From Nitrospirota bacterium (GTDB taxonomy: Bacteria; Nitrospirota; UBA9217): a stretch of 64,000 nucleotides of DNA. Position 1 is the first letter of the stretch, and each line of letters starts with the position of its first letter. The stretch spans positions 1,694,702 to 1,758,701 of the forward strand of contig CAVTRN010000001.1 in assembly GCA_963737155.1 (NCBI GenBank), in the 5' to 3' direction. The translations under genes and the position numbers were made by a program. Shown piece after piece: positions 22,623 to 60,348 of the stretch. Under the pieces are notes generated by a model that saw only the letters and a list, made by a program, of their open reading frames with translations, made no database searches and had not been told where the DNA came from.

Positions 22623-22819
22623 GGAACCCGCATTAAGAACTCCCGCGGCCTTGTTAACCATCATAATTCCTCTTTGTTTCTATTGTCCCCATGAAGGTTT
22701 ATGTGCATTTTCCTCCCTCAATTGCGTCAGGATTCCCAAAAGCCTCAACCACTGATTGCTATGATTCATAACCGCTTGCAATATCCTGAAAACATAGCAT
22801 TTAATTACAAACCGCTATG

Positions 22820-24402
22820 GAGCTTGTTGCTCAAATGCCAGCGTAGCCGTTTATGATCGCCCATATGGGATAGTGCCAGACTGCAAATGGGGTATCTCTG
22901 CGAAGCACACGGCATGAATCAGCTGTCGTTTTCGTTCTTTATACTGCCATCTGGGCCGCAATCCCTTTGCCGCTTCGCCAAAGCTTCAAGAGATTGTGCG
23001 TCGTGCAGATGAGTTTCCATTCCTGGGAGCAGGCTTCAATCCCTCGGCGCATGTAGTGCCGGATGCCGCGATTGTCTTTAATCTGGCCAAAGATCGGTTC
23101 GACGGTCTGGCCTCGTTTCTTATAAAGCTCTCTGCCCCGCTTGGTCAGGAGCTTCCTCTCCATCCTCTGCCGGAGTGTCAGGCTTTTTGGTATCCTCCCT
23201 TGGGGCGGGGATGATGCGGCGGCCTCTTTACGTTGCTTCCAGTCTTTTTTGGTTGCGATAAGATGTTCGGGACCGTCGGGAGTGATGGCCGCAAAGTTCT
23301 TCTCACTTGCGTAGCCGGCATCGCTCAGAGATATTTCGATCTTCAGTTCTTTTTGCAGGGCGATCTCGTTTAAGCTCTCCTGGGCCTTCTGGATCATGGG
23401 ATGCAGCTGGTTGATGTCGTTTTCCTGGTTCGTGACCTCGGCGGCGATGATGATCTGCTCCTTGGTGACCACGGCCTGGCTGTTGTAGCCCTGAACATAT
23501 CCGCTTCGGGTTTTCATGATCCTGCTGTCCGGATCAGTCATATTGGCCTTCGCTTCCGACGATGGCGTCGGATCAGGCTCCTGAGGTTTGCGGCCCCGTT
23601 TCTTGTTGCCGGTTTCAGCCTCTTGGGCCTGTCGTTCTTCGATCTTTGACTGTTGCTCGGCTGCTGCCTCTGCAGCCTGTTCTTCCAACCGCTTCTTGCA
23701 CGCGGCAAGGCGGGCTCTGCGGCTGGTCCGGTCGGCAAGTTCATCAGGAAGTTCATCGCCGCGTTTGTTTTGGCCGTACTGCCGGTCTTCCTCGGTGTCC
23801 TTGGCCTCCGCTTCATCGAGCATCCTCTTCACTTCCTGCTCGATATGTTCGTACGTGCGGTTGGCTTCCAGGGCTGCGTTAACCTTTATCTTGCTCCTGT
23901 CAAGGGCCACGATGCCGACTTTGACGAGCCCGGCTTCCTTGCAGAGCTTGAGCATCTGTTTGAACAGCCCCTCCAGTGCCTGGCCGTTGTCCTTCCGAAA
24001 TCGGCTGATGGTGCAGTGGTCCGGAACTTGGTTGGCGGCAATTACCTTGAATCCGATGTCCCGTTCGCAAAGCTTCTCGATCTCACGGGATGATCGGATA
24101 CCGAGGCTGTAGGCATATAACAGCAGGAAGACCATCATTGACGGCTCAAAAGCTGCCTGGCCTTTTCCGTCCTGGCGGTATTTTCGGTAGAATGCCGTAA
24201 GATCCATTTCTGCCACGACGTCAAGGACCATCCAAACAAGGTCCTTGGATGGCAGCCACTCCTGCAAGGTGGGCGGCATGAGATATACTTGATCTCGGTT
24301 ACAGTCTTTGAAATTGTAGGCCATCCAGCGTCTCCTTATATGCGTGATGACCAATACTATACTATTCGTATATTAATGTCAAATGATTTATGCAACAGGC
24401 TC
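22820..24402 (-). mobile_element. Complete IS1182-family element
   Basis: IRs GAGCTTGTTGCTCAAAT and GAGCCTGTTGCATAAAT; TATG duplicated at 22816-22819 and 24403-24406. Confidence 0.88.
22939..24324 (-). CDS. IS1182-family transposase
   Basis: SSREIE, PDHCTISRFR, TDPDSRIM, GYNSQ, DAGY and VEPIFGQIK. Confidence 0.95.
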   Translation of the reverse strand: MAYNFKDCNRDQVYLMPPTLQEWLPSKDLVWMVLDVVAEMDLTAFYRKYRQDGKGQAAFEPSMMVFLLLYAYSLGIRSSREIEKLCERDIGFKVIAANQVPDHCTISRFRKDNGQALEGLFKQMLKLCKEAGLVKVGIVALDRSKIKVNAALEANRTYEHIEQEVKRMLDEAEAKDTEEDRQYGQNKRGDELPDELADRTSRRARLAACKKRLEEQAAEAAAEQQSKIEERQAQEAETGNKKRGRKPQEPDPTPSSEAKANMTDPDSRIMKTRSGYVQGYNSQAVVTKEQIIIAAEVTNQENDINQLHPMIQKAQESLNEIALQKELKIEISLSDAGYASEKNFAAITPDGPEHLIATKKDWKQRKEAAASSPPQGRIPKSLTLRQRMERKLLTKRGRELYKKRGQTVEPIFGQIKDNRGIRHYMRRGIEACSQEWKLICTTHNLLKLWRSGKGIAAQMAV

Positions 24403-24629
24403 TATGATGGTGCTCAAATAACGCTACTGCTGGTTAATGTAGTGGATTATCTCCCTGATTCTCCCAAATTCAGTTGTTTGGTTATCGGGATCGTTCACGG
24501 CACCTTTTCAAGTAAACTACTATTAGACATAATGGTTGACAGTTAAAGAAAAGTGACCTGCCCCTTGCAACGTGGGTTATAATTGAGAACCCGTTCTCAA
24601 ATACAGAGCCACAACCAAGGAGGCAGGTC

Positions 24630-25739
24630 ATGAAACATTTTATCACATTCGTCGGACTTGATGTACACAAAGATACCATTGATGTTGCGCTAGCCGAATC
24701 AGGTGACGACAAGGAAGTCCGCCATTACGGAAAAATCGACGGAGACCTTGCGGCATTAGATAAAGCCATCAGGAAGCTCCTGAGTAAAGGCGCGAACCTT
24801 CACTTTGTCTATGAAGCCGGTCCCTGCGGCTATGATATTTATCGTCATCTGACAAAGCAGGGATTTTCGTGCGTCGTGGTAGCCCCCTCCCTGATACCGA
24901 AAAAGAGCGGAGATCGGGTCAAGACTGATCGACGTGATGCAATGAGCCTTGCCCGTTTGTACCGTTCCGGAGAACTGACAGCAGTTTATGTTCCCCGCGA
25001 GGACGACGAGGCCGTGAGGGATTTAAGCCGTGCGCGAGAGGATGCCGTCAACGCATCACGCGTCGCCCGTCAGCGGCTCGCGGCTATGCTTCTGCGGTTG
25101 GGGTACCGGTACAGCAAAACGCTGTGGAGCACAGCCCATTTTAACTGGCTGTCCACGATCAAGATGCCGCATCCGGCGCAGCAGATCGCGTTTCAAGAAT
25201 ATATCCATGCTATCAGGGAATGCAGCGATCGGGTGAACCGCCTGACTGACCAGATACAAAAACTGATTCCGGACTGGAGGCTGGCGCCGGTGGTCAAGGC
25301 CCTGCAATCGCTTCGAGGGGTGTCACTCATGGTCGCCACAACCACGGTAGCCGAGATCGGCGACTTGAGTCGCTTTGCAAATCCGCGCCAGCTTATGGCA
25401 TATCTGGGGTTAGTGCCGTCCGAGCAATCCAGCGGGAAGAAGGAAAAGCGAGGCGGCATCACTAAAACCGGTAATGGGCACGTCAGGCGCGCCCTTGTGG
25501 AGGCAGCGCAAGCATATCATCACCAAGCGCGGGTTAGCAGGATACTGCTTGCACGGCAAGAAGACCTGCCAGATAGCATCCGCAAGATCTCTTGGAAAGC
25601 CCAGGTGAGGCTGTGCGGACGCTTCCGTAAACTGACCGGCCGAGGGAAAACCAGGAACAAGGTCGTGACCGCGATCGCCCGGGAGCTATCCGCCTTCATG
25701 TGGGCTATTGCGAAGGAAGTGCCGATCCAGTACGCATAA
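24630..25739 (+). CDS. IS110/IS1111 DEDD recombinase
   Basis: GLDVHK, YEAGPCG, KTDRRDA and GLVPSEQSSG. Confidence 0.96.
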   Translation: MKHFITFVGLDVHKDTIDVALAESGDDKEVRHYGKIDGDLAALDKAIRKLLSKGANLHFVYEAGPCGYDIYRHLTKQGFSCVVVAPSLIPKKSGDRVKTDRRDAMSLARLYRSGELTAVYVPREDDEAVRDLSRAREDAVNASRVARQRLAAMLLRLGYRYSKTLWSTAHFNWLSTIKMPHPAQQIAFQEYIHAIRECSDRVNRLTDQIQKLIPDWRLAPVVKALQSLRGVSLMVATTTVAEIGDLSRFANPRQLMAYLGLVPSEQSSGKKEKRGGITKTGNGHVRRALVEAAQAYHHQARVSRILLARQEDLPDSIRKISWKAQVRLCGRFRKLTGRGKTRNKVVTAIARELSAFMWAIAKEVPIQYA

Positions 25740-25799
25740 GCATGTTATCAAAGAGCTGAAGACCATAAAGGAGACCATAGACAGCAACTACAAAAAAAT

Positions 25800-25993
25800 A
25801 TCCAAGGCAGAAGCAGGGACGCGGTCGCGTTTAAGGGAGAACCCTCGAACCTACTATGGAATAAGGCAATGCCGAACTTCCGCTACTAGACCGAGGAAGC
25901 TCCCCGGCGAAAACAAGTCATGCGGTCAAACCCGCGCATATCAGAGTGATCAAACGTCGAACAACAGGCCCCGTCTCTGGTTGTGCCTTGGAT
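25800..25993 (+). ncRNA. Predicted bridge/seek RNA of the IS1111-type element
   Basis: Outer stem ATCCAAGGCA/TGCCTTGGAT enclosing two internal-loop hairpins; loop segments match the target and donor junctions. Confidence 0.7.
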
Positions 25994-26261
25994 CAATAAT
26001 GAATACGTGAACCTTTAAAACAAGGGACAGGGAAACTATTTTCTCCTTGACAACTGTCAACCATATCAGTAGGTGGCAGTAAGAATTGCGCTGTCGACAG
26101 GGGTCATGACCTCTTTTGCAATTCATCGATGCTTGGGGAATCCTGTAAGGACCGCAATAAATTACTTAACTGTTTTTAAATCGTGGCTTTTTGCCATGGT
26201 GCTCAGACCGTTCCGGAGAACAAAGCGGCTTCAACACGAGGGACTCTGATGGCCAGTAGTA

Positions 26262-27245
26262 TTATGTGCTATTTTCAAAAAAAACGTTGGCCAGTTCTCT
26301 TGCTTCAGCCACACTCTTGCTGGTCTGGACTTTTGATGCCAGGTGGTGCCCGAATTTATAGTTTTGGGCAAAAAAATGGGTGTATTCCTTAAGTCTGCCA
26401 AGCCGATACTCAGGCCGGAAAAGCTCACTTAAGAGATCGACATAGTTGCCATAAACCGTGGGTAAAGACACCGTCGGCTGCGTAATTTTGCAGCCTAGGA
26501 GATCTCGTGCGATTTCGGCAAACAGCCAGGGTTTAATTGCTGCGCCGCGGCCGAGCATCAGTCCCTCAGCGCCAGAGACGCGCAGACAATTTTTCGCATC
26601 CTCGACAGAGAATATTCCGCCATTAGCGATAACGGGAATTTTGAGCCATTCTTTTACTTTGGCAATACACTCCCACCGCGGCCTTCTGGCAAATGACTCA
26701 TTTTTAAGCCGGGCGTGAATTGAGAGCATATCAATGCCTTCGTCCTCAAGCATGGTGCAGAAGGTTTTTAATTTTTCTTCGTTCAGTTCGACGCCGATTC
26801 GGATTTTTGCCGTAAGGGGCAATGGTGTAAGTTTTCTTGCCTCAGCTACCAGGCAACGGACATGCTGCGGCTGTTCCATCAGTCTGATGCCTGCGCCGAT
26901 CTTGCCGACAGCGGGGGCCGGGCAGCCCATATTCAAGTCAATCACATCGGCTTTGAGTTTATGGAGAGCCTCTATGGCCGGGGCCATTTCCTGAGTTGTG
27001 GAAATCAAGAGCTGATAGGAAAGCGGTTTTTCTGAACTAGTCCTGATCAGGAACGGGGATACTCGAGCGCTTTCCGTGGGCAACCTTTTTGCCGAAAGCA
27101 TTTCCGTAGACAAAAGGCCGATTCCGCCAAAGCCGATAACAATCTGCCGAAGCGCGCTGTGGGTAAGGCCCGCCATGGGTGCCATAAGCAGGGGCGGATT
27201 GATCTGAAGATTCCGAACGTGAATTTGTTGCAGTAATGTTTGCAT
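26262..27245 (-). CDS. tRNA-dihydrouridine synthase family protein
   Basis: MAPMAG, DLNMGCP, KIRIG, IHAR, IANGGI and MLGRG. Confidence 0.92.
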   Translation of the reverse strand: MQTLLQQIHVRNLQINPPLLMAPMAGLTHSALRQIVIGFGGIGLLSTEMLSAKRLPTESARVSPFLIRTSSEKPLSYQLLISTTQEMAPAIEALHKLKADVIDLNMGCPAPAVGKIGAGIRLMEQPQHVRCLVAEARKLTPLPLTAKIRIGVELNEEKLKTFCTMLEDEGIDMLSIHARLKNESFARRPRWECIAKVKEWLKIPVIANGGIFSVEDAKNCLRVSGAEGLMLGRGAAIKPWLFAEIARDLLGCKITQPTVSLPTVYGNYVDLLSELFRPEYRLGRLKEYTHFFAQNYKFGHHLASKVQTSKSVAEARELANVFFENST

Positions 27246-57882: not shown

Positions 57883-57920
57883 GGGTATGCCAGACATGGT
57901 GAAAGTAAACCTGACACTTA

Positions 57921-58164
57921 CCGTTCCTAAAAACATAGTATTTTATTTCTCATAACTATGACGGCAGCCGAACAGTGCTGCTGCCGGTTAACGTCAGGGA
58001 TTCCCGCCCTGATTCGCCCAAGTCCCGTTGTTTGCTGATCGGGATTGTTTCTGGCGCCTTTTCAGCAAGACTGCTGCTGGCAGGTGGCCCGGAGAATTGC
58101 GCTGTCGACGGGATGATGGCTTCTTCTGCAATTCAGCGCAGCCTGGGGAGTCCTGTAAGGACCG
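57921..58164 (-). ncRNA. Predicted TnpB omega-RNA scaffold overlapping the tnpB 3' end
   Basis: Position at the right end; stems GAATTGC/GCAATTC and CGGCAGC/GCTGCCG; boundaries taken from the second copy. Confidence 0.65.
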
Positions 58165-59682
58165 TCGTTGGTAGAGACTGTGATGATTTCCACAACCTCC
58201 CCGAGTCTTCATCTTGCTCCAAAACTTCCAGATGTGCTCCTCTCGATTCCTTGCAGGTAGAGGGGAGGCGGTTCTGCCTGGTATGGGAGACTCGGAATAT
58301 CCTTGAACTCTTCTCGCGATCGCAAGCGCCGCTGCTTCATGCGGCGAGATGCCATGAATAGACATATAATTGTTTCTGCCGATAACGGATGTGTAAGCAG
58401 GATTCACGGAGAGCACACCGGCGCCTGCCTTAAATGCTCTGCGGTCAAGCATGTTTAAAAAGGTCGAATAGGCGAACCCGGACAGCATCCGCGCATACGT
58501 TACTCCCTGTTCCTTAAGAGATGCTTTCTTCTTTTCGAAGTCAAGAGTTTCATGAGCGACGGGTTTCCCTGTTTTAATTGACCGGTCGATAATGCCGACG
58601 CAGATATCACCGTAAGTTGCCTCGGTCTGTTCCGTGGATCTGTCTTTTATACATGCAGCATACGTTGTGTGCCAGACAAGATTGCCGAACCGGTCAGTCT
58701 CGGAAACAGCAATCTCTTTTTCGTTTGCATCTACGCCAATACATCCGATTTCTTGCGGTTTCCCGGTAATTATTTCTCTTTGGGGGATATCAACTGAAGA
58801 ATACAGATACCAACCCTTCTCGCCACGGACAAACCGGTGGGTGATTGCCTGGCCGCGCGGGAGTGCCTGCTCAATATATTCCTGCCCGTAAGGATATGTT
58901 ACGGTAGGCACCATGATGTGTTTACCGTATTTTTTGGCAAGATAGTTTGGGACCCGTATCCTGAGCGACCCGTCGATGCCAAGCGTGCAGGTCTGGTTGC
59001 CGGCCGTTTCATCCTTCGATCCCAGGCAAAACGATGAAGAGCTTCGGGCAGCCTTCCAGGCAGACAGCCAGTTATTGTGGGATTTATAATCGTTTTCAGA
59101 AAGGCTGAACTGCTTGTGGAAAAGTTTCTTTGTCCCAAAGCAAATCCTGATTCGGCCTTTGTCCAAATCGTATTTCAGCTTTTCCAGTTTCTGCACCGAT
59201 GAATGGAGCGTCCGTTTTTTGTTGTGGACCGCAAAACGGAGAGAATCCACGCTGGTCGTTTTCTCATATTCGGACAATTCCGTGTCTTTGCGTATGTCAA
59301 TGATACTGTTCTCTCTGGTTTTAATCCATTTTCTCGCAGATTTTATTTTGTGCTCGAGCTTTTCAATCCGTAGTTTTAATACCTCAACCGCGGAGCTGAT
59401 ATTGCCGTCAAGATCGTAGCGGATAGCGTTAAACTGCCGGGCGGTGATACCATACCTGACAAGATACTCATTTTTGAATGAAATGGGTTTGTTGCCGGAA
59501 CGAACGCTGTCTTTAAAGAGAGAGCGTTTGATGTGCCCGTATGAGTCGCCGATATCGTCAAGAACATGATAAAGAGACTTCTTTGTGTCCAGGTAAGACA
59601 TGTCAATCAGCAAAGTTTGAGCGGTAAAAGAAAGTGCTTCACTTTTGCCGCTCTTGCCCATTTTATCCTTATTACTTGCCAT
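57994..59682 (-). CDS. tnpB: TnpB-like RuvC protein, zinc-finger-less variant
   Basis: IGVDAN (RuvC-I), AHETLDF (RuvC-II), VNPAYTSVIG...GISPHEAAALAIARR. Confidence 0.9.
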   Translation of the reverse strand: MASNKDKMGKSGKSEALSFTAQTLLIDMSYLDTKKSLYHVLDDIGDSYGHIKRSLFKDSVRSGNKPISFKNEYLVRYGITARQFNAIRYDLDGNISSAVEVLKLRIEKLEHKIKSARKWIKTRENSIIDIRKDTELSEYEKTTSVDSLRFAVHNKKRTLHSSVQKLEKLKYDLDKGRIRICFGTKKLFHKQFSLSENDYKSHNNWLSAWKAARSSSSFCLGSKDETAGNQTCTLGIDGSLRIRVPNYLAKKYGKHIMVPTVTYPYGQEYIEQALPRGQAITHRFVRGEKGWYLYSSVDIPQREIITGKPQEIGCIGVDANEKEIAVSETDRFGNLVWHTTYAACIKDRSTEQTEATYGDICVGIIDRSIKTGKPVAHETLDFEKKKASLKEQGVTYARMLSGFAYSTFLNMLDRRAFKAGAGVLSVNPAYTSVIGRNNYMSIHGISPHEAAALAIARRVQGYSESPIPGRTASPLPARNREEHIWKFWSKMKTRGGCGNHHSLYQRRSLQDSPGCAELQKKPSSRRQRNSPGHLPAAVLLKRRQKQSRSANNGTWANQGGNP

Positions 59683-60238
59683 TTTCCATGGCCTCCAGAG
59701 CTTTTTTTGCTTTATTGGCCGCTGACCGGCGTCCGTAGAGCCTTGCGCAAAACGATGTCAATACTTCAATCATGTCCAGCACCAGATCGTCCTTTAGCTC
59801 GGTCTGGTCTACAATAATAAGTTGACGACCATGAGCTCGAAGTGCCGATTCTACATACTCAGATCCAAACCGCATAAGCCGGTCACGATGCAAGGCGACA
59901 ATAATACTGACGTTGGAGTCGGCAAGCAGCTTCATGAGTTTTGGCCTGTGCCCATTAAGACCAGATCCAACCTCAGACACCGCTTTTGAAACTGACAACC
60001 CTTTGGAAGCGGCATATACGGAAAGCCGCCCGAGCTGCCCGTCCAGGTCTTTCTTTTGGTCATGACTGGATACCCGGGCATAAATAGCAACAGAACCTTG
60101 GGCAGTTTTCTGCTCTTTTATAATGATGGTTCCGGTAGGCATCTGCTCAGCCTCAACCGGCAGCTTGCCAGCCTTCCACCATTTCCATGCCGCTTGATAG
60201 GTTATACCTTGTTGCTTTGCCCATACGCTTAGCTTCAT
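59672..60238 (-). CDS. tnpA: IS607 serine recombinase TnpA
   Basis: N-terminal HTH; YARVSS, EVGSGLN, DRLMRFG and SFCARLYG.RS. Confidence 0.96.
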   Translation of the reverse strand: MKLSVWAKQQGITYQAAWKWWKAGKLPVEAEQMPTGTIIIKEQKTAQGSVAIYARVSSHDQKKDLDGQLGRLSVYAASKGLSVSKAVSEVGSGLNGHRPKLMKLLADSNVSIIVALHRDRLMRFGSEYVESALRAHGRQLIIVDQTELKDDLVLDMIEVLTSFCARLYGRRSAANKAKKALEAMENGK

Positions 60239-60348
60239 AAATACGTAATATCATATAAAATTATATTATACAATATAAATATTAACAGTATTCCACCTTA
60301 CGAAGTTCATCGAATTTGCAGCACCGACTTGATTCCGCTATTCAAGGC

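Follow-up and report, generated by a model that had tools for sequence, protein, structure and literature searches.

Standalone, effector-less omegaRNAs of OMEGA systems, mobilised and acting in trans, have already been published (Altae-Tran et al., 2021, as summarised in PMC10691335), and protein-less, PATE-like derivatives of IS200/IS605 elements are described as encoding omegaRNAs (Meers et al., PMC10055086). Among IS607 elements, TnpB/omegaRNA systems have been reported for CboIStron (bioRxiv 10.1101/2023.11.20.567912) and ISXfa1 (bioRxiv 10.1101/2023.08.09.552727), and the CboIStron report describes an omegaRNA given in trans that works for CboTnpB, an IS607 TnpB (bioRxiv 10.1101/2023.11.20.567912). 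Here we analyse a 64,000-nt stretch of a Nitrospirota genome (G000:C1:1694702-1758701; "the window" throughout, with positions given as window positions unless C1 or C2 is stated). It contains a fragment homologous to the guide-RNA (omegaRNA) region of the resident IS607/TnpB element, running from the structural 5' edge of the scaffold to the right end, without a nuclease or transposase gene, as an earlier sequence-only reading of the window had claimed. This fragment, cut into three pieces by two other insertion sequences, is now a solitary relic.

A gene-less omegaRNA region in three pieces

With the two interrupting elements, of the IS1182 and IS110 families, taken out, the fragment is 245 nt colinear with 57921-58164, a stretch that comprises the 3' end of the TnpB-like gene and the right end of the reference IS607 element (family A). 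The features of the locus are:

26155..26180, minus strand: stub separating host DNA from the RNA homology, probably an IS607 left-end tip (ACAGTTAAG..TTTATTG)
26070..26154, minus strand: omegaRNA piece 1, with the 5' hairpin and helices 3-5 (blastn E 1e-18; covariance model 30.0 bits, from model position 8)
24407..24526, minus strand: omegaRNA piece 2, the scaffold middle (83/120 ungapped; blastn E 2e-15; covariance model 20.2 bits)
22780..22819, minus strand: omegaRNA piece 3 plus degenerate right end, with the terminal AACGG missing (27/40; covariance model 11.1 bits; family alignment)
22758..22779, minus strand: flank that would have supplied the guide; right-end terminus not alignable and start not fixable
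24527..26069 (boundaries +-2 nt), plus strand: IS110-family element with its transposase open reading frame (ORF) at 24630-25739, in a TAGT core (NF033542, 265 bits; cut-off 140)
22820..24402, minus strand: IS1182-family element with its transposase ORF at 22939-24354 (NF033551, 302 bits; cut-off 270; inverted ends GAGCTTGTTGC/GCAACAGGCTC)

Homology of the fragment to the RNA at the tnpB 3' end and right end was found at the level of both sequence and structure. A blastn comparison with the reference gave three colinear pieces (82% over 84 nt, E 1e-18; 77% over 88 nt, E 2e-15; 87% over 23 nt, E 0.006). All three are also covered on the minus strand by matches to R1, a covariance model of the resident IS607/TnpB omegaRNA that was built without the fragment (26005-26155, 30.0 bits, E 7.6e-9; 24361-24645, 20.2 bits, E 1.6e-5; 22783-22830, 11.1 bits, E 0.019). 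The colinearity had been proposed on hand counts, and those for 22780-22819 against 57921-57960 (27/40) and for 24407-24526 against 57961-58080 (83/120, ungapped) were reproduced, while the third, 68/84 with one gap, was recounted as 69/85 with one gap (26070-26154 against 58081-58164). When the alignment of the 120-nt middle piece is shifted by 1-3 nt, only 22-39 of the 120 positions agree, compared with the 83 that agree in register.

At its 5' side the homology begins at CGGTCC (26154), which is position 8-9 of the R1 model and the structural 5' edge. The abrupt stop reported at CGGTCCTTACAGG is real, and tblastn detected no similarity to tnpA or tnpB at the locus. There are no protein genes between the ends of the unit, as expected of a non-autonomous mini-IS or a standalone omegaRNA. 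A dus-like gene ends at 26262, 107 nt from the fragment.

Both insertions were correctly recognised in the sequence-only reading. The excision of the IS1182-family element with one TATG agrees with a TATG target duplication at 22816-22819 and 24403-24406; this element has six further copies in the genome, at 98.7-99.1% identity. What had been called an IS1111 element is an IS110-family element that shares one AG of its TAGT core, because its ends (TAGACATAATGG...ATATCAGT) are identical to those of six relatives. One of these six copies, all with a TAGT core, lies inside a full IS607 copy and another about 90 nt outside the left end of a second full copy (C2:232330-234081; C2:2320479-2322230), and a third IS110-family piece adjoins a right-end remnant at C1 252791-252956.

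The fragment is 72% identical to A, and 24 of its 38 changes at sites where A agrees with a second resident family, B (see below), are GC->AT. The right-end terminus AACGG is absent. In the consensus fold of the omegaRNA the fragment keeps 33 of 52 pairs, compared with 46-51 in TnpB-attached RNAs and 38-48 in other orphans, and its energy in that fold is +12.4 kcal/mol, compared with -38 to -57 kcal/mol; the conserved helices of a functional omegaRNA fold are thus not retained. Judged from these features of its sequence, the copy is dead and non-functional, in keeping with the earlier suggestion of GC->AT decay, loss of the terminal GG and probable death. Because the AACGG terminus is missing, the guide start proposed in the same reading cannot be fixed, and the guide flank that it named is undefinable.

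The resident element and its guide RNA

The reference element lies in the same window:

57920..60297, minus strand: intact reference IS607 element, 2378 bp, left end at 60297 (boundaries from full copies at 97-99%)
59672-60238, minus strand: tnpA of the reference element, serine recombinase (NF033518, 194 bits; cut-off 110)
57994-59682, minus strand: TnpB-like gene of the reference element, an ORF of 562 amino acids (aa)
57920-58172, minus strand: omegaRNA scaffold of the reference element (R1 255.4 bits)

About a dozen full or IS-interrupted copies of this element, at 96-99% identity, are present in the genome, and they set its ends (left GGTGGAATACTGTTAAT..., right ...TTTTTAGGAACGG). All eight full copies examined have GG at the start and GG at the end, with unrelated flanks, and together with the serine TnpA and the lack of a target duplication this places the element in the IS607 family. 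Outside the left end, the terminal GG is preceded by AG or GG in seven of the eight, and by AA in the window's own copy (60298-60302); AG/GG in this place may be a transposon-adjacent motif of the resident TnpB.

The 562-aa protein has no match in Pfam and a sub-threshold match (40 bits) to NF040570; the same family was matched by 30 of 30 homologues from five phyla, in all cases below its cut-off where shown. D318, E378 and H448 are invariant in all 30 homologues, H448 standing in place of the RuvC-III aspartate. There is no cysteine pair between NPAYTS and HEAAA, and the stretch NPAYTSVIGRNNYMSIHGISPHEAAA is cysteine-free, so the protein is without a C4 zinc finger. No relatives were found in the PDB by sequence or profile. 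With an AlphaFold model (predicted local distance difference test, pLDDT, 86.8), 58 matches at E<=0.001 were obtained in the PDB; Cas12f and Cas12k came first, and Cas12m, ISDra2 TnpB and Fanzor2 were also among them. Together with the homologue matches and the invariant residues, this predicted structure, a fold of the Cas12f/TnpB type, places the protein in the TnpB superfamily. In PMC10691335, TnpB clade RIIIr-4 is characterised by histidine at RuvC-III and by a missing zinc finger, and by these two features the resident TnpB would match that clade (RIIIr-4-like).

Family B is a 1885-bp tnpB-only element with six copies (C2:1168991-1170875 and five more), five of which agree with one another at about 98-99% and the sixth at about 96%. 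The B protein has 58% identity with the A protein. B and A have their right ends in common, but the 70-nt left end of B (GGGTTCTCAACTGGTCAAG..) differs, and so B is presumably mobilised by A-family TnpA acting in trans.

The reference RNA is truly structured. An alignment of 13 RNAs, which took in A, B, four orphan copies and six loci from metagenome-assembled genomes (MAGs) labelled Nitrospirota or Nitrospiraceae, yields 52 consensus pairs, and 26 of these show a compensatory (double) change, compared with 14.8 in shuffles (0/500) and 5-8 in slid controls, in which partners were moved by 1-3 columns. Paired cells make up 91.2%, compared with 82.3% in shuffles (0/500) and 34-41% in the slid controls. 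The first helix with a compensatory change is the hairpin GGTCC-TTACA-GGACT, and a closing stem two bases upstream of it pairs with CGTT, with one-sided change only. A stem GAATTGC/GCAATTC, said in the sequence-only reading to have been kept, did not survive the comparison: no such pairing is possible in the B subfamily or in the MAG relatives (GAACCAC/GCAATCC), and the conserved helix at this site is GCGCTG/CAGCGC.

The ORF runs through the RNA (aa 506-562), and the codon-position pattern of A-versus-B identity is lost there (0.65/0.68/0.58, compared with 0.68/0.76/0.40 in the body of the gene). In distant relatives, protein similarity stops near aa 491-494 and the right end lies about 210-225 nt further on. 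Processed omegaRNA of the full copies would be about 245 nt plus the guide, with a predicted start at ..CGGUCCUUACAGG. No match for it was found in Rfam. The last ~90 nt (hairpin GGCAGCAGCACTGTTCGGCTGCC and ..AGGAACGG) are recognisable in nucleotides across phyla, in MAGs of Verrucomicrobia, Betaproteobacteria and Chlamydiae, at loci whose proteins are only 36-42% identical.

Origin of the fragment

DNA on the dus side aligns with the related genome G003 up to 26181, so host homology stops 26 nt before the RNA. The 26-nt stub in between (TTTAAAAACAGTTAAGTAATTTATTG) is probably the tip of an IS607 left end. The seven left-end lineages of the genome have two blocks in common, ACWGTTMA and TWWMTTG, separated by four to five bases, and a two-block pattern made solely from the letters of these lineages has 24 matches in 9.67 M genome positions, namely 19 true left ends, the stub and four other sites. 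The match in the stub has the correct orientation, is directly followed by CGGTCC and is in register with the end of host homology. A likeness of the adjacent nucleotides to the IS607 left end had been noted earlier, and it holds for the two-block pattern but hardly for a sequence profile (2.7 bits, see below).

On balance, we favour the view that the fragment is an internal-deletion derivative of an IS607 element, comprising left-end tip, complete scaffold and right end, that later decayed and was twice interrupted. An IS607 element of the histidine-type (RIIIr-4-like) TnpB clade would formerly have stood downstream of the dus-like gene, and an internal deletion would have removed everything from about base 27 of the left end to the first base pairs of the scaffold, giving a gene-less unit of about 270 nt made up of left-end tip, whole omegaRNA scaffold and right end. 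By analogy, the intact unit, if transcribed, could have given a scaffold with a flank-copied 3' guide, loaded in trans by the TnpB of full copies. The unit would then have decayed by point mutation, losing its AACGG terminus, and the decayed unit would have been struck by the IS110-family insertion at the TAGT core and the IS1182 insertion with its TATG duplication. Another possibility, a deletion made by TnpA at the stub/RNA junction, was discarded, since GG is missing on the left-end side of that junction.

Deletion derivatives of other kinds occur in the same genome. In one, the left end plus 40 tnpA codons is joined to a point about 55 nt upstream of the RNA; in another, tnpB codon 62 is joined to a point about 20 nt upstream of the RNA; in two more, left ends are joined to the last 72 and 48 nt. 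The genome has 18 right-end-anchored partial copies, the fragment included, whose 5' limits, in profile positions on which the scaffold starts at 357, are 150, 154, 328, 334, 354 (the fragment), 374, 438, 440, 461, 503, 505, 505, 508, 517, 521, 542, 547 and 551. Three of the 18 limits lie within 25 nt of the scaffold edge. Because there are many partial copies with scattered 5' limits, a break at that edge is unremarkable. Four short right-end remnants (C2 327258, C2 1574145, C2 2582173 and C1 1616854) have a limit at 503-508 in common, where the CAGGG..CCCTG hairpin begins; the coincidence may reflect a second recurrent breakpoint, or a detection limit only.

R1 detects the RNA in six of 15 genomes of the genus. 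Solo or partial matches inspected there (13 with loci and eight more from G001) have scattered limits, and none has a left end adjoining the edge. A degenerate 20-mer of the stub/RNA junction, with one mismatch allowed, matched a single site across 64 genomes of the order, and none of the 30 metagenome matches to the exact junction 17-mer has an R1 match. Several copies of the same internal junction at different loci, which would be a sign of mobilisation, were therefore not found. A covariance search of related genomes had been put forward earlier as a way to find solo copies with the same 5' boundary; the boundary was not found again in the genomes searched, although the covariation sought with it is present in the reference RNA (26/52 pairs).

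Some matches looked like further solo copies and were set aside. Four matches of about 204 nt in G009 each sit behind a full TnpB gene, and three 77-nt matches in G010 are at contig ends. A recent tnpB-less derivative in G001 (C9:1211052-1211311) has tnpA codons 7-134 joined to a point about 70 nt upstream of the RNA, and its RNA is identical to that of a full copy at 259 of 260 positions; it is not the same kind of unit, since its breakpoint is different and the left end is missing. One uninterrupted gene-less omegaRNA copy, intergenic, lies at C1 256114-256376 in the window's own genome (R1 163 bits, 38/52 pairs). G003 lacks this copy at the syntenic site, but the intergenic DNA there is too diverged for the limits of the copy to be fixed.

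Several observations weigh against an internal deletion with a retained left-end tip, and some of them would fit a plain 5'-truncated remnant, in which a full or tnpB-only element lost its left part and some host DNA, the 26 AT-rich nucleotides are host or filler sequence, and the break fell at the RNA edge by chance. The limits of the two blocks were chosen after the stub had been seen. A neutral nhmmer profile of the same seven left ends gives the stub 2.7 bits (composition bias 7.1 bits; local E 0.039); more than 130 sites in the genome score higher, and the stub is absent from the 133 genome-wide left-end matches at E<=1000. The stub also lacks the terminal GG of the left end, and the spread of 5' limits over 150-551 in the 18 partial copies, with a like spread in relatives, makes a chance break easy to accept. 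Yet the two-block pattern, with only four matches in 9.67 M positions that are not left ends, lies precisely within the 26-nt gap, correctly oriented and in register, and for this reason we regard simple truncation as a possible but lesser explanation. An empty site was also sought, but the flank on the right-end side was syntenic in 0 of 14 genus relatives, with none extending beyond 22625. Because the relatives are non-syntenic on that side, deletion in situ and arrival as a mini-element are indistinguishable.

Arrival is the essence of the sequence-only reading, in which the fragment is a non-autonomous unit of left end plus omegaRNA, that is, a member of a once-mobile guide-only mini-IS607 moved by TnpA in trans; the copy at C1 256114-256376 would be its second representative. 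These two copies do resemble each other at their borders. They share TTTATTGC(---)CCTT at the 5' border, a similarity reached in 46/5000 shuffles and in 162/5000 genomic 32-mers taken at random, and ATATTG(A)CA(G/A)GC beyond the right end (16/3000 in an anchored test). They are sisters in a maximum-likelihood tree, at an ultrafast bootstrap (UFBoot) of 57, the second copy is missing from the syntenic G003 site, and mobilised, trans-acting standalone omegaRNAs are described in PMC10691335. The likeness at the borders and the grouping in the tree also count against an origin by deletion in place. However, the two copies are 71% identical to each other, no more than the fragment is to A, and with tree support of 57% a common sub-lineage was rejected. 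The copy at C1 256114-256376 does not have left-end block 1 in place, the junction was found nowhere else in the 64 genomes or the metagenome scan, and breakpoints differ in the other deletion derivatives. Moreover, TnpA of IS1535 needs left-end motifs at bp 20-59, according to PMC6188088; the stub is shorter than that binding region, and by analogy a 27-nt left-end tip is unlikely to be mobilisable. We found no signs that the fragment ever transposed as a mini-element, and we consider such a mobile family unlikely. What stands of the earlier proposal is a gene-less unit from scaffold to right end with a plausible left-end tip; given the unique junction and the scattered 5' limits, we found no evidence of a mobile mini-IS607 family or of a selected trans-acting guide. 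It is very unlikely that the two copies are insertions of a guide-only mini-IS607 that was mobilised by TnpA from a ~27-nt tip and retained for extra TnpB guides; if true, such an element would mark a natural transition between transposons with one guide and systems with many.

Comparison with known systems

The fragment is a real but dead, solitary case of the gene-less guide-RNA leftovers that are already known, and is most likely an internal-deletion derivative. Since such leftovers of TnpB elements are known from the literature and this copy is dead, the relic as such is of little importance. A more useful by-product of the analysis is a guide-RNA model, supported by covariation and about 250 nt long, for an IS607 TnpB lineage of the histidine type that lacks a zinc finger; there is no Rfam family for it and no solved relative detectable by sequence. 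The genome, with about a dozen full, six tnpB-only and about 18 partial copies, is also well suited to the study of element decay.

Like the standalone omegaRNAs summarised in PMC10691335, the fragment consists of scaffold and transposon-end sequence, lacks genes for a nuclease or a transposase and shares its genome with full effector copies, and its action in trans is presumed. Unlike them, it is single, heavily mutated and twice interrupted, and is known here from sequence alone. The PATE-like derivatives described by Meers et al. are likewise gene-less, retain the two ends together with the guide-RNA region, and rely on TnpA and TnpB in trans; they belong to the IS605 family with its Y1 transposase, have hairpin ends and occur in several copies, whereas the fragment is solitary and derives from an IS607 element with a serine recombinase. 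The resident IS607 element resembles CboIStron and ISXfa1, as reported, in combining a serine TnpA with TnpB, in having its guide RNA encoded by the 3' end of tnpB together with the right end, and in taking the guide from the flank. It differs from them in that its TnpB has a histidine at RuvC-III and no zinc finger, the features of RIIIr-4 in PMC10691335, and its RNA matches no Rfam family. Lastly, the resident scaffold is about 245 nt long, compared with about 150 nt in ISXfa1.

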